A stretch of DNA of 35,700 nt. It comes from a virus. Its lineage: Duplodnaviria; Caudoviricetes. Made by a program: the position numbers and the translations under genes. Position 1 is the first letter of the stretch, and every line of letters begins with the position of its first letter. Under the pieces are notes generated by a model, which made no database searches, was not told the origin of the DNA, and worked only from the letters and a program-made list of their open reading frames with translations. The stretch lies in IMG/VR virus record IMGVR_UViG_3300037629_000004, positions 1-35,700 of that record; one strand, given 5' to 3'. Of this stretch, positions 5,160 to 35,668 are shown in pieces.

Positions 5160-5200
5160 CGAAGTTATGCTGAAAAGATGAAATATATCAGGGTGATATA
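5160..5200 (-). promoter_or_regulatory. Putative head-operon promoter: -7 variant TAACTTCG (5167-5160), with palindrome TATATCA-GGG-TGATATA (5184-5200) over the -33 position
   Basis: Perfect palindrome copy in the intergenic region upstream of the portal gene. Confidence 0.7.
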
Positions 5201-7791: not shown

Positions 7792-7823
7792 CAAAGTTAC
7801 TATATTACCCTGATATACTCAAA
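7792..7823 (-). promoter_or_regulatory. Bacteroidota promoter TTTG-N20-TAACTTTG with operator palindrome 7801-7817 in the spacer; drives the packaging genes
   Basis: Consensus -33 and -7 boxes; TATATTA-CCC-TGATATA on the + strand. Confidence 0.85.
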
Positions 7824-11016: not shown

Positions 11017-11194
11017 GATATTTTGTATTTGGTAAGTGACATTTCGGAGTATCGTAATACCAGGTTCTATAAACATCTGAATAAACCATCTTCTGAGTAG
11101 CATTATCCCAATGCCTGCGAAGTCCGCACCACTTGCAACGAAACTCCCTGAATCCGGGCAGTTTTTCCCACTCATGATGATTAATAAGGTGCAT
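10997..11194 (-). CDS. Small Zn-finger-like protein
   Basis: HEW...CKWC...C pattern. Confidence 0.55.
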   Translation of the reverse strand: MHLINHHEWEKLPGFREFRCKWCGLRRHWDNATQKMVYSDVYRTWYYDTPKCHLPNTKYHEQETN

Positions 11195-12497
11195 TTCCTT
11201 CGGTTATAATTGTCAAACTTTCATTATGATATAAGCACTTTGAAAACAAGGCCCCGTTTCTGTCTTTGGCGCAATCAATTATCAACAATCCCTTTGTTTC
11301 AATGGGATTTTCATCAATCTTAATGCTTAAAATATTGTAGTAATAAGGGCGATATATGAAGCAAACTATATCTGCATCCTGTTCAATGGCTCCCGACTCC
11401 CGGAGATCTGAAAGCCTGGGGCGTTTATCTGCTCTTTCTTCGACTCCCCTGTTTAACTGACTCAGTGCTATTATCGGAATTGAATATTCCTTTGCGATAG
11501 CCTTTAGCCCCTGTGATATTTTACTAACCTCCTGTTCCCTGTTTCCGGCATCCTGTTTCATGAGCTGCAGGTAGTCAACTATTACCATCTTAACCCCGTA
11601 CCTGATTATCATTTTCTTAATCTTTGAGCGGAGTTCAAATATTGTCAGTGCCGGGGTGTCATCAATGTAAATAGGCAGATTAGCTACCTGATCACTTGAG
11701 TAAACCAGTTTATCAAAATCCAGATCGGCGTTTCTTATTTCAACATTGGAATAACCGCTTGCGCCCGATAACAACCTTGCTGATATTTCGCTCTCTGACA
11801 TTTCGAGAGAAAAGAGGCAAATAGGATAATTGAGTTTTGCCGGGTTAAGGGCAAGTGTTAGTGCCATTGCAGTTTTACCCATTGAAGGACGGCCAGCTAT
11901 GATAATTAAATTACCTGGTTGCCAGCCTCCGGTGATCCTGTCAATAGAAGTGAACCCGGAAGGAACCCCGACAAGTGACTTCTCTTTTTTGAATATCTTT
12001 TCAACTTCAGTCAGTAATTCATCTATACACCTGTCAATCTTTTTGGGATCTTTATTCTGAGTGAAGTTTGAAATATTGAGTATTTGTGATTCTGTAAACT
12101 CTATTACCTCTTCCAGCGACTCTTCAAAGGCCATGTTAATTATTTCATACCCGGTCCTGATGTATTCCCTTAACAGATATTTCTCTTTGATTATCAAAAC
12201 ATGATTGTTAATGTAGCCGGAGGAAACAACTGATTCTGTTAGTTTGGTTATATACAACGGACCTCCTACCGATTCAAGTAAGTTGTTTCTTCTGAGGTAA
12301 TCAGTAAGGCTAACAATATCACATGAAGTTTTTGAAAGCTCCAGAATAGCTGTAAATATTTTCTGGTGCGATTCTTTATAAAACATTTCCGGCTTTAACT
12401 GGATGCTGTGAATAACATCAGGATAACAAAGACAGGTCCCAAGTACTGCTATCTCTGCTTCGATCATCTGAGGGGGTATTTTACCTAAGTCTATCAT
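11181..12497 (-). CDS. dnaB: Replicative DNA helicase
   Basis: GRPSMGKT, IVDYLQL, LSQLNR and DLRESGAIEQDAD motifs. Confidence 0.97.
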   Translation of the reverse strand: MIDLGKIPPQMIEAEIAVLGTCLCYPDVIHSIQLKPEMFYKESHQKIFTAILELSKTSCDIVSLTDYLRRNNLLESVGGPLYITKLTESVVSSGYINNHVLIIKEKYLLREYIRTGYEIINMAFEESLEEVIEFTESQILNISNFTQNKDPKKIDRCIDELLTEVEKIFKKEKSLVGVPSGFTSIDRITGGWQPGNLIIIAGRPSMGKTAMALTLALNPAKLNYPICLFSLEMSESEISARLLSGASGYSNVEIRNADLDFDKLVYSSDQVANLPIYIDDTPALTIFELRSKIKKMIIRYGVKMVIVDYLQLMKQDAGNREQEVSKISQGLKAIAKEYSIPIIALSQLNRGVEERADKRPRLSDLRESGAIEQDADIVCFIYRPYYYNILSIKIDENPIETKGLLIIDCAKDRNGALFSKCLYHNESLTIITEGNAPY

Positions 12498-13126
12498 CTG
12501 CCGGGTCCTGATTTAAATTCTGGTATACTAACTGCCTGTTGTGTTGTGTTGTCTCTTTTTAATGGGAATAAACCAGCCCAATTATTACCCGTTGCTTGGT
12601 CTATAATTTGTCTTGCCGTATCGGGATTACCAGAAGAAAGTCTTAGTAGATTTCTATAACACGCCTCTACTGATTTCTGGTTTTTGTATTTTTCATTTCT
12701 CGACTTCTTGTAATCCATCCATTCCATAAAAACAGGAATAAACTTTACATCTATAAAATGAAAATCAAAATCTGCCTTCTTCTTATTATTTATATCACTA
12801 TCACTTACACTATCACTTACACTATCGGCATGATTTGCATCGCTTTTTATGCCTTCGGATGCGTTCGCATTTATTTTATTCCATCGCATTAAAGCACTCT
12901 GTCTGTTTTTTTCCCTCTTTTCTTCATACTTAACTAAGTCTCTTTTAAGGGTTTGCTTTATTGGTGCGAATAATAATTTAGTAAGCCTGTCCGGTGCTTC
13001 GGGATTTTTATCATTAACATACCGGAAGAAATGTTTAATCAATTTTCCCGCTTCAACATCTTCAAGTTCCTCAAAGATGTTAATCCAGTCGGCATAAACT
13101 AAAATTGATTTTTTATCTTCAGCCAT
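12494..13126 (-). CDS. Replication initiator (DUF6291-like N-terminus)
   Basis: KKSILVYADW...EAGKL N-terminus; internal DSVS repeats; EWMDYKK...NNWAGLF C-terminus; coupled to dnaB. Confidence 0.8.
   Translation of the reverse strand: MAEDKKSILVYADWINIFEELEDVEAGKLIKHFFRYVNDKNPEAPDRLTKLLFAPIKQTLKRDLVKYEEKREKNRQSALMRWNKINANASEGIKSDANHADSVSDSVSDSDINNKKKADFDFHFIDVKFIPVFMEWMDYKKSRNEKYKNQKSVEACYRNLLRLSSGNPDTARQIIDQATGNNWAGLFPLKRDNTTQQAVSIPEFKSGPGR
12792..12890. repeat. Iteron-like repeats inside the initiator gene (CTATCACTTACA tandem, GCAT/ATGC motifs); candidate replication origin
   Basis: 12-bp tandem next to an AT-rich tract; lambdoid origins lie within the initiator gene. Confidence 0.4.
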
Positions 13127-13138
13127 TGATTATCCTCC

Positions 13139-13255
13139 TTAAAAGATGCCCCCGGAACAAAAAGAAAATTCAGGTAGGTACGCATCACTGAACCTTTCCT
13201 GAATCCTTTTTGCCCGGAGGCAATATTTTAACGTGATATTTAAAACCGATCTCAT
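13139..13255 (-). CDS. Leader peptide 1, 38 aa (MRSVLNITLKYCLRAKRIQERFSDAYLPEFSFCSGGIF)
   Basis: Homologous to leader peptide 2; its stop codon overlaps TAAGGAGG before the initiator gene. Confidence 0.6.
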   Translation of the reverse strand: MRSVLNITLKYCLRAKRIQERFSDAYLPEFSFCSGGIF

Positions 13256-13266
13256 ATGTGATGCGT
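13147..13266 (-). promoter_or_regulatory. Structured leader RNA 1 (long hairpin plus 9-bp loop-to-5'UTR pairing)
   Basis: Stem 13213-13222/13147-13156; ACGCATCAC (13266-13258) is complementary to loop GTGATGCGT (13188-13180). Confidence 0.8.
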
Positions 13267-13275
13267 TTATTTCTG

Positions 13276-13307
13276 CTAAATTACTATATCACCCTGATAT
13301 ATCCAAA
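13276..13307 (-). promoter_or_regulatory. Promoter TTTG-N20-TAATTTAG with operator palindrome 13285-13301 in the spacer; drives the replication operon
   Basis: Same geometry as the promoters at 7792, 16951 and 20009; TATATCA-CCC-TGATATA. Confidence 0.8.
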
Positions 13308-13324
13308 TAATATTAAGACAAAAA

Positions 13325-13525
13325 TTACTCATAATTCAAAATTTTGTCGAGGAGATCAATATCATGACCGAGGCCCCCGGCTCGAACTACCAGATTAAAA
13401 TATTCTCTCGGCTGTAAGACCAGGTTGATTTTGCCCTTCTCCTCCTGTATCTTCAGAAGTTCGCTTGCCAGGACTGCCCTTTCGGATTCTGCCCGTTTCC
13501 TTGTTGGTGATTTGAATAGTTTCAT
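13325..13525 (-). CDS. Hypothetical protein
   Basis: ATGA-coupled ORF. Confidence 0.65.
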   Translation of the reverse strand: MKLFKSPTRKRAESERAVLASELLKIQEEKGKINLVLQPREYFNLVVRAGGLGHDIDLLDKILNYE

Positions 13526-13785
13526 CTTAAAAATATTATTCGTTTACCAGCCATAAAACAATTATGAATAAGTTGAAATTCGCTTTTTGTAATCTTGCCA
13601 TTATGAGCCTTTTCATGACATTTTCGACAGAGCGCCATTAAGTTGCTTATCACCTCCCGACCTTCTCCCCTTCCATAAATATGATGAATGTCAACAGCCG
13701 GAGAAGTACAAGCCTCACACATTATTTCCTCCTGGGTGGCATAGTCAAAATGGCTCATGTATGTCTTTATATGGGGTTGCATCAC
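13522..13785 (-). CDS. HNH endonuclease-family protein
   Basis: CEAC...DIHH...NLMALCRKCH motif. Confidence 0.85.
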   Translation of the reverse strand: MMQPHIKTYMSHFDYATQEEIMCEACTSPAVDIHHIYGRGEGREVISNLMALCRKCHEKAHNGKITKSEFQLIHNCFMAGKRIIFLR

Positions 13786-14189
13786 ATGAAGTTTATAAGT
13801 TGCTTTTCGATTTCTATACTAGATACCCCAATATCCTCTATGATTTTATCCAAGACCCTTGAATAAACCTCTTCAAATTCATCCTGTTGCATTGAGGCAA
13901 ATGATATACTCATTGCTTCATAATACATTCCCTGATCGAGCTGGTAGGCTTTGAAATAACCCGCTTTAATTGTCATATACCTTCGGTAAGTATCAAAAGG
14001 CATATCAAGTTTAGAATTTTCACAACCTACATTTATGAGTGCCATAAATTTCTTATGGAACCCCAGGTTCCGGGGATTTGTTATCTCAACCTTATAGTCT
14101 TGCCCTAGTTTTAATTTTCTTTTTTCATCCTGATCGGAAGGATAAAGAGGGACAAGTCCGGAAATAGTATTTCGGCAATAAATTTCCAT
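13782..14189 (-). CDS. DUF1367/NinB-like protein
   Basis: PRNLGFHKKF...SISFASMQQDEFEEVY motif. Confidence 0.75.
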   Translation of the reverse strand: MEIYCRNTISGLVPLYPSDQDEKRKLKLGQDYKVEITNPRNLGFHKKFMALINVGCENSKLDMPFDTYRRYMTIKAGYFKAYQLDQGMYYEAMSISFASMQQDEFEEVYSRVLDKIIEDIGVSSIEIEKQLINFM

Positions 14190-14620
14190 TATGCCAAGGG
14201 ATCAAAAGAAGGATCATCTTCAGCATTACCGCCATAAAAACCATTTCTTATATCACTTTCAACATCTCCTGTTTTCTGCTTGATTTCTGTTTTTTCCTCT
14301 CTCTTTCCTCCGGCAAAATGAAAGCGATCACACAATATTTCAGTGATGTATTTAGTTACTCCGTCTTTGGTTTCATATTGTCTGTATTGGATCTCACCCT
14401 CGACAATAATCGAAGATCCTTTTTTGACAAACTTCTCGATTGTTTCGGCTGTTTTCCCCCATGCGACAATATTGTGCCATTGAGTTTCGGTTATCGTTTC
14501 TCCGTCCTTTGTATATCTTTTGCTTGTCGCTAAAGAGAACTTTGAAACAATTTTACCAGATTCGAGATGCTTAACCTCGGGGTCGTTACCGATGTTCCCA
14601 TATAGAATTACTTTATTCAT
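14189..14620 (-). CDS. ssb: Single-stranded DNA-binding protein
   Basis: MNKVILYGNIGNDPE, TQWHNIVAWG; acidic tail. Confidence 0.95.
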   Translation of the reverse strand: MNKVILYGNIGNDPEVKHLESGKIVSKFSLATSKRYTKDGETITETQWHNIVAWGKTAETIEKFVKKGSSIIVEGEIQYRQYETKDGVTKYITEILCDRFHFAGGKREEKTEIKQKTGDVESDIRNGFYGGNAEDDPSFDPLA

Positions 14621-15234
14621 AATGTTTCGTATTTATTATAATTTTCAAGTTTTGTTTTTACTTGTTCGATCAGAATATCTAATCTTCTCTCGAACTCTTT
14701 GAATAGTTTGGCATCGGGATAAACCCGAACCATAAACAACTTCATTCCTTCGACATAACTGACAAAGTCACAATAAGGAAGTCCGGTAACAAACAACTGA
14801 CCCTGTACTTGGTATCGGTATTCTGAAGGCAATTTACCTCCCTCAATATATTCAAAGTGTGTTCGTGCCAGGGGGCATTTAATTTCAATTAACCCGTCCG
14901 TCATTCCGTCCGGTGATATACCAATCCAGTCGTGATATTTATGGTCTTCGTCGGGAATAATAAAACCGACCTGTTTAACCTCGACATCAAAAAGACTTTC
15001 ATATTCAGTTCGGGCAATAGGTTCTGTTTCTTTGCCATGTTCCATATTAGCATTAGAATACTTTTCTTCTTCTGCCTTATGCGTGATTATTTCACAGGCA
15101 ATGTTTGTGACCAGGTCTTTATGTGTCGCCGTGCTTTCTCCTGCCACAAGGGATTTAAAACGGGTTCCTGTAACACGACCACAACGAGCCTCAAACCAGG
15201 CTTCACTATTTTGATCTATATTATAGAGTATCAT
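14617..15234 (-). CDS. YqaJ/lambda-exonuclease family nuclease
   Basis: QNSEAWFEAR, ISPDG, IEIKCP and YQVQGQL motifs. Confidence 0.92.
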   Translation of the reverse strand: MILYNIDQNSEAWFEARCGRVTGTRFKSLVAGESTATHKDLVTNIACEIITHKAEEEKYSNANMEHGKETEPIARTEYESLFDVEVKQVGFIIPDEDHKYHDWIGISPDGMTDGLIEIKCPLARTHFEYIEGGKLPSEYRYQVQGQLFVTGLPYCDFVSYVEGMKLFMVRVYPDAKLFKEFERRLDILIEQVKTKLENYNKYETL

Positions 15235-15641
15235 TCTATTGACTTGTCAAGTGATACCATAAGATCAAAGAGAACAGTAGCATATGCGGATAAATCCTCA
15301 AAAGGAACTTTCCCGGCAATTACAAGATCCTTGCTGTATGAAACAGCAAAACCGGAATACTTTGATTGCTCCCTCTTTAATTCTTTGCCATAAGAGGAAT
15401 ATTTTCCTTTCTGTACCGGCTTAATTACAAGAAATGTCTGAGGATTGCCGTTCTTGTCTTGGTAGGTTTTTTCTTCTTCGGTAAACTCTGCCTCTTCTCC
15501 GGCTTTGAATTTATTCTGATCCTTAAATTTGGAATTATAAAAAGCAATCTTGTTGTCATATTTGACTTTAAAGGAATACATCTTGCCAAACTGGGTCTCT
15601 TTCTCTTTGTGAAAAATAACCTCTTTGATTAATTCTTTCAT
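15231..15641 (-). CDS. Putative OB-fold ssDNA-binding/recombination protein
   Basis: Aromatic, beta-rich N-terminus with helical C-terminus; occupies the usual annealase position. Confidence 0.5.
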   Translation of the reverse strand: MKELIKEVIFHKEKETQFGKMYSFKVKYDNKIAFYNSKFKDQNKFKAGEEAEFTEEEKTYQDKNGNPQTFLVIKPVQKGKYSSYGKELKREQSKYSGFAVSYSKDLVIAGKVPFEDLSAYATVLFDLMVSLDKSIE

Positions 15642-16675
15642 AACTCGTTGGCTTTATCCTTGATGAAGTTTGCAACCTTTATTAACAGAGAATTAGCATC
15701 TGCAATAATCCCGGCAGCCTCTATACTTTTAACCTCCGGCCTGGGTAGGTCATTTATTACCTGCATGAAGTTTAACAGTTTTGTTTTATCGGGCGCACGG
15801 GCAGCCTTTTTCTCGGCTTCCTTTGCCTTGCGTTCTGCATCGGCTTTTTCTCTTTTATCAGCCTCTTCCCTTGCCCTGATTTCTGCTTCGGCTTTCTCTT
15901 TAGCTTTTTTCTCTGCCTCTGCCTCGGCTCTTGCTTTTGCAAGTTCGGCATCTCTTTTCTCCTGTTCCTTGCGTGCCTTTTCTCTTTCTGCTTCCTGTGC
16001 TTTCAGGAGTTTGTTTTTCTCTGCCTCTGCTTTTTTGCGTTCTGCAGCCATCTCCTTTTCTCTTTCTTCGGCCTCTTTCTGCAAGCGGATATTTTCAAGT
16101 CTCTGTGCTTCACGGGCCTCGGCATCTGCCTTTTCCCTGGCAATGCGATCTTCTTCTGCCTTTTTCTCGGCTGCAATTCTTGCCTCGCGTGCTACCCGGA
16201 ACCCGGAGAGAAGATTATCAAATACGGTTTGTTCCATGTGGCCCAATGCCAGAGGCTCGATGTCAGTATAGGGGCTAAGTTTTTCAAGCCTCTCCATACG
16301 AAGTTTTTCAACTCTTTCACGTTCAAGATTCTCAAAATGATTCTCAATCTTTGACAGGGTTTCTTCTTTCTCCTGGGATGCAAAAAGCTGGGCATTTTTC
16401 CATCCATCGACAAAGCGACCTCCATTCAAATAGAATAACTTTGCTTTCTTATGGATCTCTGCCGTCCCGGTTCTGATTTTCACGTACTGCAAACGGAGTT
16501 GTTTTGCCATCTTGCAAGTATCATCATTCAGTTCAAGTTTCAGGATCTCGTTGTACTCTTTTTCGAGTTCAACCATCTTCGCCAGCATCGGAGTAAATAT
16601 CTCCTCTATCTCTTTAGCCTTGCTTTCTTCAAGACCATAGTCGGATGCGTTAATTTTAACTAATGTAGTTTCCAT
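15638..16675 (-). CDS. Long coiled-coil protein of the recombination module
   Basis: E/K/A/R-rich helical repeats. Confidence 0.75.
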   Translation of the reverse strand: METTLVKINASDYGLEESKAKEIEEIFTPMLAKMVELEKEYNEILKLELNDDTCKMAKQLRLQYVKIRTGTAEIHKKAKLFYLNGGRFVDGWKNAQLFASQEKEETLSKIENHFENLERERVEKLRMERLEKLSPYTDIEPLALGHMEQTVFDNLLSGFRVAREARIAAEKKAEEDRIAREKADAEAREAQRLENIRLQKEAEEREKEMAAERKKAEAEKNKLLKAQEAEREKARKEQEKRDAELAKARAEAEAEKKAKEKAEAEIRAREEADKREKADAERKAKEAEKKAARAPDKTKLLNFMQVINDLPRPEVKSIEAAGIIADANSLLIKVANFIKDKANEL

Positions 16676-16686
16676 TTTTAAGGGTT

Positions 16687-16812
16687 TTAATTATTATTAA
16701 ATTTTTCTTCTAGTCGTAGTTCATCTTCTTTCGATTCCATTTCCTCTTCCTCTTCCTCGGTGTAAAGAGGTTCTGTCTCCGGGTTGTTATCCCATATAGT
16801 TCTTTTGCTCAT
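16687..16812 (-). CDS. 41-aa highly acidic protein (MSKRTIWDNNPETEPLYTEEEEEEMESKEDELRLEEKFNNN)
   Basis: Translated by hand; starts 5 nt after the leader peptide 2 stop. Confidence 0.65.
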   Translation of the reverse strand: MSKRTIWDNNPETEPLYTEEEEEEMESKEDELRLEEKFNNN

Positions 16813-16817
16813 CTGGT

Positions 16818-16931
16818 TTAAATTATACCTCCGGGACAAAAGAAAAAGCACATCAGGAAGCGTGACCGACCATTTGTGCTATCTCCCGCCCGGAGGCAGT
16901 ATTTTAATGCTATGTTTAAAACTTTATTCAT
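16818..16931 (-). CDS. Leader peptide 2, 37 aa (MNKVLNIALKYCLRAGDSTNGRSRFLMCFFFCPGGII)
   Basis: Homologous to leader peptide 1; reading frame kept across a net 3-nt length difference. Confidence 0.6.
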   Translation of the reverse strand: MNKVLNIALKYCLRAGDSTNGRSRFLMCFFFCPGGII

Positions 16932-16942
16932 ATGTCACGCTT
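16826..16942 (-). promoter_or_regulatory. Structured leader RNA 2 (long hairpin plus 9-bp loop-to-5'UTR pairing)
   Basis: Stem 16889-16898/16826-16835; AAGCGTGAC (16942-16934) is complementary to loop GTCACGCTT (16866-16858). Confidence 0.8.
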
Positions 16943-16950
16943 TTCAGTAT

Positions 16951-16982
16951 CAAATTTACTATATCACTCTGATATATGCAAG
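16951..16982 (-). promoter_or_regulatory. Promoter CTTG-N20-TAAATTTG with operator palindrome 16960-16976 in the spacer; drives the recombination operon
   Basis: Consensus -7 box; TATATCA-CTC-TGATATA. Confidence 0.85.
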
Positions 16983-17350: not shown

Positions 17351-17878
17351 TTAAAGTAGAATATGTTTTCCCTTAATAGCAGATCTTGTAAGTCGCATAC
17401 TGGCCTCCTTGCCATAAGCTACTAGAACAGATGGTGCGCCAGAATTAGCCTTTGCCCGCGTTCCATCAACATAATGAAAATGTAATCTCCCTTCAATAAA
17501 TAAAAGAGAATCAGCAACCGACCAAACAAAATCAAAAAACATCTTAGTTTCTGTTCGAGCAAATATTAAAGCGATCCCGTTATTGTGTATAGCCATTAAC
17601 TCAAGCCACCGAGTCGCCTCTAGTCCATAAGGAGGATTACACCAAACAAATTCATTTTCTCCCCAGGGGCTTAATAGACCATTATCTTCAATAGTTAAGT
17701 GTCGTTTGGCCGTATTCCAATGCCTTACAATAGGAGCGCACGGATCTAAATCAAATGGCCCTAATTGTTCAATAATATAGGGAGGCGTTAGCCATTCGTC
17801 ATTTAACATTTTTGCAGAATGATGAGATCCTATTGCCCTTATAGATTTAATTCTATCCATTTGATTTAGATCTTTCAT
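17351..17878 (-). CDS. Phage DNA N6-adenine methyltransferase (Dam-like family)
   Basis: DEWLTP, FDLDPC, VWCNPPY and ARTET motifs. Confidence 0.92.
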   Translation of the reverse strand: MKDLNQMDRIKSIRAIGSHHSAKMLNDEWLTPPYIIEQLGPFDLDPCAPIVRHWNTAKRHLTIEDNGLLSPWGENEFVWCNPPYGLEATRWLELMAIHNNGIALIFARTETKMFFDFVWSVADSLLFIEGRLHFHYVDGTRAKANSGAPSVLVAYGKEASMRLTRSAIKGKHILL

Positions 17879-18276
17879 CGCCTGTCTCTCAATAAATAAT
17901 AATCACCTTGTGGCTTTACTTCCTTGCTTACAGTATCTCTCACAGCCGGAACAGGTTTGTTGCAGATAGTATTCGCCTCATTGATCCTTGCAGATTTCAC
18001 GACCAGGCATGACCCGACCATTATCACAAAGAACACTATCGGGAGAATAGATTTAGGCAGTGCCTCTTCAGGAATAGAGAAGCGATTCATAAACCAGTAG
18101 GTCACTATCTCCGTTGACTTGCGGGCATTAATCTTCACAAGGATATGTCTGACAGTTCCTTCCACAGCACGGGGAGAGACATTCAGGCTATCGGCTATCT
18201 CCTTTTTACAGAGACCAAGAACAATACCTGTACAGATTTGATCTTCACGACTTGTCAGAATTACTGAAGTGTTCAT
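17875..18276 (-). CDS. LuxR/GerE-type HTH protein with a following TM segment
   Basis: LTSRE...KEIADSLNVSPRAVE pattern; hydrophobic ILPIVFFVIMVGSCLVV. Confidence 0.8.
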   Translation of the reverse strand: MNTSVILTSREDQICTGIVLGLCKKEIADSLNVSPRAVEGTVRHILVKINARKSTEIVTYWFMNRFSIPEEALPKSILPIVFFVIMVGSCLVVKSARINEANTICNKPVPAVRDTVSKEVKPQGDYYLLRDRR

Positions 18277-19116: not shown

Positions 19117-19224
19117 TTAGTTATTACAGAATTTGCGGATGAGTTCAAGATGAACCAGATTGATATGATTACCGATCAGGAATACATCAAAAGGTTCTGG
19201 CTGGAGTTGAAATATTTCTCTCAT
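19117..19224 (-). CDS. 35-aa peptide (MREIFQLQPEPFDVFLIGNHINLVHLELIRKFCNN)
   Basis: TAATG overlap with the upstream stop. Confidence 0.5.
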   Translation of the reverse strand: MREIFQLQPEPFDVFLIGNHINLVHLELIRKFCNN

Positions 19225-19436
19225 TATCCCCAAATGTTTTTTCTGATTCCATGATTTTTGAATACCTGTTCAATGGCTTCCATCTGATCGAGTGTCAGAG
19301 GCTTGCGACCATAAAGAATACCAGCCCAGAAAGGCCGTGAGTAATGCTTGAAGATGTTAAGAATCTCATCTTTGATTATCTTTTTATCTCCCTGCGGAAC
19401 CCGCATCCATCCTTTTAAAAATGTGTATCTGCTCAT
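19224..19436 (-). CDS. Cro/XRE-like small HTH regulator; first gene of the early operon
   Basis: ILYGRKPLTLDQMEAIEQVF resembles XRE helices 4-5; position after the promoter. Confidence 0.6.
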   Translation of the reverse strand: MSRYTFLKGWMRVPQGDKKIIKDEILNIFKHYSRPFWAGILYGRKPLTLDQMEAIEQVFKNHGIRKNIWG

Positions 19437-19520: not shown

Positions 19521-19562
19521 GCAAAAATCAAATTATTTTAGTTCTTTCTTTTGTGAACCAAT

Positions 19563-19593
19563 AAAAAAGCCCCTCGAATTTAATCAAGGGGCT
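19563..19593 (-). terminator. Intrinsic terminator ending the tRNA/ncRNA unit
   Basis: AGCCCCT/AGGGGCT stem plus U-tract. Confidence 0.85.
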
Positions 19594-19604
19594 GGCTTCA
19601 TGTC

Positions 19605-19845
19605 TGGCGAGTCAATCACTGTCCGACTTAGCGCTTCAAAGATTTCGGTTGCCAACCTAATTTCAGTATTGTCCTGATTTCCTCGGACTCTTCAGGACTC
19701 AAAACCGAGTGATACACTGACTCTGATTGGGTATATCATCGGGGTCTCCTATTATCGTGTACTTGAATAAAATAACTTTGACAAATTAAAAGACAGTTTG
19801 CAACCAATCTCTCACTCGATCAAAACTACTTTCAGAGACCCCTTC
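19605..19845 (-). ncRNA. Candidate structured ncRNA (multiple helices, possible pseudoknots)
   Basis: No substantial ORF; five complementary pairs found by eye; bounded by the tRNA-like gene and a terminator. Confidence 0.45.
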
Positions 19846-19857
19846 TCCATTGTGGTT

Positions 19858-19932
19858 TGGTGCGGGAACGTCACACGATTACGCATTTCAAAGGTTATGA
19901 GCCTTAGCAGTTACCACTTACTTTATCCCGCA
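19858..19932 (-). tRNA. Degenerate tRNA-Met(CAT)-like gene
   Basis: 72-nt cloverleaf: TGCGGGA/TCCCGCA acceptor stem, TGGTA D-loop, CTCATAA anticodon loop; non-canonical T-arm. Confidence 0.7.
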
Positions 19933-20008
19933 TCTTTTGATTAGTACTTTTTCATCTTCTTGCAAGATTTAGTTTGTTTTTTTGTCAGTGTTTCTCACTT
20001 TGGCAAAG

Positions 20009-20040
20009 CAAAGTTAATATATCAGTTTAATATATGCAAA
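20009..20040 (-). promoter_or_regulatory. Promoter TTTG-N20-TAACTTTG with operator palindrome 20018-20034; drives the tRNA/ncRNA unit
   Basis: Perfect -33 and -7 consensus; TATATCA-GTT-TAATATA. Confidence 0.85.
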
Positions 20041-22264: not shown

Positions 22265-22281
22265 TATATCTCTGTGATATA
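22265..22281. promoter_or_regulatory. Operator palindrome upstream of the lysis cassette
   Basis: TATATCT-CTG-TGATATA, just downstream of a -7-like TACATTTT. Confidence 0.7.
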
Positions 22282-23189: not shown

Positions 23190-23206
23190 TATATTACTCT
23201 GATATA
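23190..23206. promoter_or_regulatory. Operator palindrome upstream of the tail tube gene
   Basis: TATATTA-CTC-TGATATA. Confidence 0.7.
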
Positions 23207-35053: not shown

Positions 35054-35668
35054 TTAAATTCCAAAAGCATTAGTGTTCCAAAGTGGCGTGAATATCCAGT
35101 CCGGGTAATCGGTTTTATTGGCAAAAAGAAAGTTATATGCAGAGGCATCAACATTGAAAACACAGGGCAGGTTTGTACCTAGTATCGGCCTTGTGTAAAC
35201 GGGTTTATATTCAGCAGGTATCTTGCCATAAAGTTCCCTCATTCTCTCCCATGCGGCACATAATTTATTGACAGCAGAAACCCTCTCCCATCCATTGCCC
35301 GAAGAAGCCATACTGATCCCGGAGCCGTAGAGCCTTGTTATATCCCTCTCCACGTACTTGAAGAAGACATAATAGGCAATGAGCGACTGCAAACCCGTAT
35401 TCTTTAAACCCTCCCATTTGATAGTGTAGTCATACCCGTTAAAGGAATGAGTGAATGCCTTGCCGTTGACCAGGTCAATATATTTCTGTGTGACAGGCAC
35501 TCCATTTGACAGGTCGGCGATAAGCAATGAATAGAGTTTATAACCGAGCAGCGAGATCAGTATTTCTTTTTCGTACTGAGCAATAGCCTGCGCAAGTGAT
35601 GTGTCGCTTGTCGGCAGGGTCGGGATATTGATTTCTCCAACAAAATATGTACTGTCAATGAATGCCAT
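35054..35668 (-). CDS. Head-tail adaptor-like protein
   Basis: Helical protein; EKEILISLLGYKLY...LIAYYVF pattern; position after the head genes on the circle. Confidence 0.6.
   Translation of the reverse strand: MAFIDSTYFVGEINIPTLPTSDTSLAQAIAQYEKEILISLLGYKLYSLLIADLSNGVPVTQKYIDLVNGKAFTHSFNGYDYTIKWEGLKNTGLQSLIAYYVFFKYVERDITRLYGSGISMASSGNGWERVSAVNKLCAAWERMRELYGKIPAEYKPVYTRPILGTNLPCVFNVDASAYNFLFANKTDYPDWIFTPLWNTNAFGI

Follow-up and report, generated by a model that had tools for sequence, protein, structure and literature searches.

Two leader cassettes with different keys in one phage genome belong to a family of putative RNA gates ahead of replication genes

A conspicuous characteristic of the phage record IMGVR_UViG_3300037629_000004 is the presence of two similar leader cassettes on its minus strand, copy 1 and copy 2, one ahead of replication genes and the other ahead of recombination genes. 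This raises the question as to whether the cassettes are a genuine regulatory element, how such an element would work, and whether the two copies act separately. The stretch analysed here (the window, 35,700 nucleotides, nt) is the whole circular phage record, in the IMG/VR class 'direct terminal repeats' and with a 127-nt terminal repeat. Direct reading of the sequence confirms the common architecture described in a first-pass annotation made from the letters alone: a promoter, a 9-nt element (the key), AT-ATG, an upstream open reading frame (uORF) of 37-38 codons and a long hairpin. In both copies the key is complementary to a segment in the loop of its own hairpin. The two keys differ at 3 of 9 positions with every change compensated in the loop, and the inner stems differ between the copies yet pair, as had been claimed. 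The bulged U also described is present in both window copies, whereas most members of the family introduced below have no bulge at that site. A perfect match of at least 8 nt between the 14 nt before an ATG and the zone 58-80 nt downstream occurs at only these two of the 795 minus-strand ATGs of the window, and even with filters off no third cassette was found there. The hairpins fold with z = -6.1 (copy 1) and -5.6 (copy 2), with equally good shuffles in 0/200. Both promoters agree with the -33/-7 consensus of Bacteroidota promoters (PMC6847099), and the key lies 3-6 nt downstream of the inferred transcription start in each copy. DNA of this phage is recorded from sediment metagenomes, and both cassettes are covered with zero differing letters by contigs from three further sediment runs (X3, X4 and X5, of the same year and habitat and possibly from one campaign).

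Relatives were sought with pattern scans that fixed the stems only, or one key only. Parsing gave 52 members, 39 of them distinct (L241 was not parsed; L196 and L197 were omitted as repeats), from uncultured phage and metagenome contigs. The 5' part is complete in 35, with L204, L240, L211 and L198 omitted as truncated, and patterns lacking the 5' stem arm later added L348 and L387. Besides viral contigs, where a key-only pattern gave 10 real loci out of 34, the scans yielded members at 41/78 metagenome loci and 2/96 tested genome loci. The latter come from a GTDB pattern scan with 113 loci, 17 of which were omitted as near-duplicate repeat matches and 96 tested with the model; the two real matches are a Bacteroidales and an Ignavibacteriaceae metagenome-assembled genome. 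A pattern of promoter, ATG and U-tract found at least 120 loci; among the matches listed 70 were distinct, of which 5 passed and 1 was new. No new members were found in 150 genomes each of the families to which G001 and G002 belong (the one weak match, L174, lacks such an element), nor by pattern in 400 Bacteroidota genomes, where the remaining matches were dismissed by eye. All 39 members have one unbranched hairpin, of about 72-75 nt in the window copies. Taken together, the sequence comparisons indicate that the element is a real family. The first-pass annotation had recognised no named family in it, and this stands: Rfam gave no match in the window at the gathering score and merely chance microRNA and small nucleolar RNA matches at E<=10, with none to the C4 or isrK families in seven loci or around both window copies. 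Likewise, blastn found no match among 50,697 annotated phages, nor for copy 2 (the only copy so searched) among 72,556 plasmids. We found no published description of the element; an unnamed entry in the alignments of PMC10690425, which cover 8,495 IMG/VR candidate RNAs, is possible.

Evidence for a functional element comes from the way in which key and loop change together. A contiguous Watson-Crick match of 9-11 nt joins them in 30/35 members, and one of 6-7 nt in the other five. In a 37-row alignment made with a model that did not include the key-loop helix, two-sided changes occur in 8/9 key-loop pairs and 86% of cells are paired. Covariation over the whole structure is 0.230 vs 0.143 for shuffled alignments (0/500, in a control that ignores relatedness). 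Grouping the keys into 14 rough classes, cognate duplexes average -15.0 and non-cognate ones -7.0 kcal/mol, and 0/100,000 permutations were as low. The own loop is the best partner for 13/14 keys, and the own key is the best for 10/14 loops, so that some key classes overlap. L387, which was found via the 3'-arm pattern alone, carries a new 10-nt key that matches its own loop. On a tree built without key and loop, in which 7/32 branches are well supported, the keys require 17 changes for 12 classes (minimum 11). The turnover can be seen between L221 and L247, whose flanks are 94% identical (promoter 39/41, linker 32/33) and whose key plus apex are 60% identical; where the key has been replaced, so has the inner stem. 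Seven of the 35 members carry a second copy of the key at the downstream start, with changed letters matched in L099. An apparent second key in L011 was rejected; L215 has identical letters there but another key.

For the two window copies, the cross duplexes (-3.6 and -7.9 kcal/mol) are much weaker than the own ones (-15.8 and -15.2 kcal/mol), from which no cross-talk between copy 1 and copy 2 is predicted. Together with the strong covariation in homologs, this supports the earlier proposal of a modular riboregulator whose keys are orthogonal. In the tree, the closest grouping of copy 1 is with L185, which has the same key and the same DUF6291 gene, and not with copy 2 (support 91/87); the two window copies are therefore probably not the product of a recent duplication. 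Nine other virus records, several being fragments, have one cassette each, and G313 is a fragment carrying this phage's copy 2. Among the records searched, a second, orthogonal cassette is seen only in this phage, and two orthogonal cassettes within one genome are what the window adds to the family.

The uORF is open through the hairpin in 35/35 members, vs 4/70 for the other two frames, and all three frames relative to the hairpin are used (19, 6 and 10 members) with unrelated peptides. An always open uORF in any of three frames suggests that the act of translation is selected and not the peptide. A peptide-function model was rejected on the use of three frames, and an amino-acid-sensing leader-peptide attenuator on the same frames, the unrelated peptides and the lack of fixed-frame control codons. 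The uORF stop lies within -12 to +4 nt of the next ATG in 24/29 cases, the next gene not always being an initiator. The position -12 is an A in 30/35 members, which is typical of efficient Bacteroidota starts (PMC6847099), and 29/35 have a sense-strand -7 element. Four members (L051, L251, L230 and L210) have a uORF of 87-107 codons and no gene directly behind the hairpin, with about 300 nt to the next gene; they form a subfamily that shares a conserved block coding LQGV.HSS.LPD.IEDKKSGGQ downstream of the hairpin, possibly a longer leader with a second element.

What could such a cassette do? The key-loop match is kept with different letters in dozens of related phages, and it therefore likely gates replication-gene expression. 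We consider it probable that the cassette is a translation-dependent gate on its operon, at the core of which key capture, in cis or in trans, blocks the uORF and the hairpin then shuts off the genes. A ribosome loading on the free key region would translate the uORF and open the hairpin, giving read-through or coupled initiation of the operon. Should the loop capture the key first, either in cis or from a short leader RNA in trans, uORF initiation would be blocked; with no ribosome, the inner stem and U-tract would terminate transcription, or the full hairpin would block the downstream start and abolish coupling. The arrangement of the parts fits: across the family the inner hairpin has -8.6 to -15.9 kcal/mol with a U-rich tract directly 3', and another U-rich stretch lies behind the outer stem. 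This GC-rich outer stem, whose closure requires read-through RNA, stops 11-26 nt short of the following start. The version of this gate with feedback in trans we regard as an even bet. Here the terminated or processed hairpin RNA would accumulate and capture new transcripts with the same key, resulting in negative feedback on initiator synthesis; in the manner of P4 CI acting via seqA, the same RNA would exclude co-infecting phages whose keys belong to the same group. Two keys would allow separate gating of the replication and recombination operons. We counted for trans action the key divergence of L221 and L247, the 17 key changes, the second key in 7/35 members and the weak cross duplexes.

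Several observations weigh against this gate, and in particular against its action in trans. A terminator scan, whose rule admits only loops of 3-8 nt, flagged neither window hairpin on the sense strand. Since a terminated leader contains its key as well as its loop, it could lock itself, and trans action would need processing. The joint turnover of inner stem and key could also come from recombination or from drift of positions that need only pair, and the case for fast turnover comes from one cluster (L011, L221, L247 and L215). The second key is missing from both window copies and from 28/35 members. Conservation of the U-tract and outer stem is partly built in, because both belonged to the search patterns, and L348 is a slight exception in that its uORF stops within the 3' arm, a few bases short of where the hairpin closes. 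Finally, searches of virus records, several of them fragments, found no integrase (PF00589, 0/8 records, two with terminal repeats), no serine recombinase (PF07508, 0/5, three with terminal repeats) and no XRE repressor (PF01381, 0/5, three with terminal repeats). The lack of an integrase or XRE repressor in these records argues that there is no lysogen needing immunity, and the three negative searches make prophage immunity of the classical kind doubtful; the first-pass annotation had named immunity as one option.

These points bear on the closest alternative, a purely cis-acting limiter in which the loop pairs back onto its own transcript's key as an H-type pseudoknot and races the first ribosome. 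Such a limiter would keep the amount of initiator made from each mRNA low, or would sense the host's capacity for translation, and key variety would arise from drift and recombination. The ATG-to-hairpin distance of 28-35 nt across the family would be enough to span the stem, and opening key plus loop costs 3.6 and 3.2 kcal/mol vs a duplex of about -13, figures that exclude a pseudoknot penalty; the window holds no second target, and no lysogeny genes were found in the records searched. We nevertheless consider this limiter rather unlikely: key and apex diverge between near-identical cassettes, whereas compensated helices should change more slowly than the promoter spacer, and 7/35 members have two targets per loop. 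An activating pseudoknot, with a sign like that of IncI repZ, is improbable. In that case key-loop pairing would distort the hairpin or hide the loop from an inhibitor and raise downstream expression, and in the seven members with a second key the 5' key could be a decoy that frees the downstream start; a repZ pseudoknot switch is named in titles cited by PMC10724649. Such activation is at odds with a key that always covers the uORF start region, with hairpin stems that stay intact when key and loop are held open, with a second key that 28/35 members and both window copies lack, and with the lack of a conserved antisense promoter.

Slightly less probable again is an RNase III-type processing or stability signal at which the leader is parted from the operon mRNA; the key match would then tune cleavage and not ribosome loading. 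The long interrupted duplex and the sequence-conserved outer stem, with its invariant G-U and C-G pairs, would suit such a signal, yet the search patterns themselves account for part of that conservation, and neither the fixed place of the key over the start nor a uORF open in 35/35 members in any frame would be explained. That the cassettes are a chance or DNA-level feature (an inverted repeat, an origin element or an assembly artefact) is hardly credible: they do adjoin replication genes, but G-U pairs favour the sense RNA strand, the covariation and open-frame statistics contradict it, and identical letters recur in other sequencing runs.

How does the proposed gate compare with known systems? 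The analogy to P4 CI and P1 C4 drawn in the first-pass annotation proves the closest in layout, and the element likely works in the manner of P4 CI/seqA while lying outside the C4/CI and Inc-RNA families; membership of C4/CI and the I-complex fails because there is no Rfam match, the fold is unbranched and there is no antisense promoter. As in P4 CI/seqA/seqC, a promoter-proximal target and a complementary structured RNA share one leader; in P4, translation across the region prevents termination and replication genes are under control, as is predicted here (PMC4825925, PMC10111431, PMC3632133). A second downstream target like seqC is present in 7/35 members and in neither window copy. In contrast to the multi-stem P4/C4 fold, there is a single long hairpin here with one 9-11-nt loop match; the target is a 5'-terminal uORF start region behind a Bacteroidota-type promoter, in apparently non-integrating phages, and there is no match to the Rfam C4 and isrK models, which detect P4 CI relatives. 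In P1/P7 C4, specificity lies in short complementary words, two of them. Here there is one word, and the hairpin lies inside the uORF; the fold also differs (PMC2864571), and the targets are initiator and helicase genes instead of an antirepressor. The P1/P7 system (RF01695) resembles the proposed gate in that its RNA repressor is transcribed together with, and ahead of, the genes to be silenced, with a small ORF in the circuit (the c4-icd-ant operon, PMC8198154). The I-complex (ColIb-P9 repY-repZ, IncB; Inc RNA/RNAI) and R1 tap-repA/CopA likewise have a leader peptide before a replication initiator and loop-mediated pairing in which few nucleotides define compatibility groups (PMC10724649). 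Here, however, the loop is downstream of its partner, the partner is the uORF start and the predicted sign is inhibitory. The earlier IncI/IncB analogy also lacks support for its defining counter-transcript: in a sequence test, 3/35 members had a -7 element on the opposite strand in the 100 nt that follow the hairpin, vs 19/278 background windows, and the antisense-promoter model was rejected. The IsrK locus of Salmonella Gifsy-1 (isrK-orf45-anrP) produces both a read-through mRNA and a short RNA that ends by termination and acts in trans on the long form, as may happen here; it also couples a uORF to the next gene (PMC4825925). IsrK differs in that it activates, in its unrelated sequence and fold, and in that no Rfam isrK match is found here.

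Features of the two cassettes and the genes behind them (all positions are those of the window).
Feature	Position	Strand	Details
Copy 1 promoter	13276..13307	-	TTTG (-33), 20-nt spacer, TAATTTAG (-7, one mismatch); predicted start ~13271
Copy 1 promoter-spacer palindrome	13301-13286	-	TATATCAGGGTGATAT
Copy 1 key	13266-13258	-	ACGCATCAC; positions -11 to -3 of uORF start; then AT, ATG at 13255
Copy 1 uORF	13139..13255	-	38 codons, spans entire hairpin; stop 12 nt before following ATG
Copy 1 long hairpin	13148..13222	-	GC-rich outer stem, inner stem, apical loop
Copy 1 loop complement	13188-13180	-	GTGATGCGT; mean unpaired probability 0.75
Copy 1 U-rich tract	13168-13159	-	immediately 3' of inner stem
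First gene after copy 1	12494..13126	-	DUF6291 protein, 210 amino acids (aa); weak replication-initiation-O-like match
Second gene after copy 1	11181..12497	-	DnaB-like helicase
Copy 2 promoter	16951..16981	-	TTG (-33), spacer, TAAATTTG (-7); predicted start ~16946
Copy 2 promoter-spacer palindrome	16976-16961	-	TATATCAGAGTGATAT
Copy 2 key	16942-16934	-	AAGCGTGAC; positions -11 to -3 of uORF start; ATG 16931
Copy 2 uORF	16818..16931	-	37 codons, spans entire hairpin
Copy 2 long hairpin	16827..16898	-	
Copy 2 loop complement	16866-16858	-	GTCACGCTT; mean unpaired probability 0.72
Copy 2 U-rich tract	16847-16838	-	3' of inner stem
First gene after copy 2	16687..16812	-	41-aa acidic ORF
Recombination operon after copy 2	13325..16675	-	345-aa protein without family match, 136-aa unknown, YqaJ-like recombinase, SSB-like gene (assigned by eye without a search), DUF1367, HNH, 66-aa unknown

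The genes behind the cassette point to replication as its usual setting. Six of 27 first genes match families which we take to be linked to replication initiators, with PHROG matches backing this (Lin1244_N in four, DUF6291 in one and DUF1376, below cut-off, in one); the others comprise HNH (3), AP2 (1) and DNA methylases (4), and 13 have no Pfam match. Among 25 first-to-third genes picked by eye, 13 match PHROGs annotated as initiator, loader, replisome organiser or primosomal protein. The element thus usually heads the replication module, and copy 1 is in the usual place. The position of copy 2, before a 41-aa ORF and recombination genes, is unusual. The placement ahead of replication and recombination operons given in the first-pass annotation holds, with the refinement that this acidic ORF comes first after copy 2. 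It starts MSKR, like the genes of initiator type that follow the cassette in L004 and L099; either a remnant or a further ORF for coupling is possible. The slot between cassette and initiator often holds a DNA methylase or HNH gene (L011, L221, L247 and L215; L005, L231, L239, L193 and L184), which suggests an insertion hot spot behind the cassette promoter.

Other elements of the window deserve mention. The genes with family matches (head, portal, terminase, lysis, tape-measure-like, DnaB and YqaJ) all share the minus strand. The palindrome TATATCAnnnTGATAT occurs at seven intergenic sites (5184-5200, 7801-7817, 13285-13301, 16960-16976, 20018-20034, 22265-22281 and 23190-23206), four of which fall between a -33-like and a -7-like element, with 19 strand matches vs 2 expected; among the 35 family members it is present only in this phage's two cassettes. 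It is likely the site of a phage-encoded regulator, candidates being a LuxR-type HTH gene (17875-18276) and a 70-aa gene (19224-19436). About 450 nt on the minus strand (19555-20005) have no minus-strand ORF of 30 codons, lie between a promoter that bears the palindrome (20039) and a terminator that is strong (19593-19568), fold with z = -3.0 and contain a long hairpin; there was no blastn match in the loci fetched, and the region is a candidate non-coding RNA. At 19858-19931 on the same strand lies a tRNA-like cloverleaf with the loop CUCAUAA (CAU anticodon), an ACCA end and an odd T-arm, which neither ARAGORN nor Rfam called. Finally, a 29-nt inverted match (79%) links the terminal repeat region (45-73 / 35618-35646) to 13341-13369, just upstream of the copy 1 promoter.

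For the phages concerned, the cassette would represent RNA-only control of replication-initiator synthesis in genomes apparently lacking an integrase or classical repressor. As the host group lacks Shine-Dalgarno signals, the 5' key would stand in for the occluded ribosome site. If action in trans is true, it would provide a mechanism for copy control or superinfection exclusion with a specificity legible from nine letters. The family would also supply a set of about a dozen key/loop pairs that pair weakly with one another, for use in gene control in Bacteroidota. Our broadest proposal is a tentative one, to which we give somewhat less than even weight: that non-integrating Bacteroidota phages carry a family of self-addressed RNA locks on replication, whose keys diversify into exclusion groups much as in plasmid incompatibility, with neither an antisense gene nor a repressor protein, and that the second, orthogonal lock on the recombination operon of this phage may make up a natural two-channel riboregulator set.

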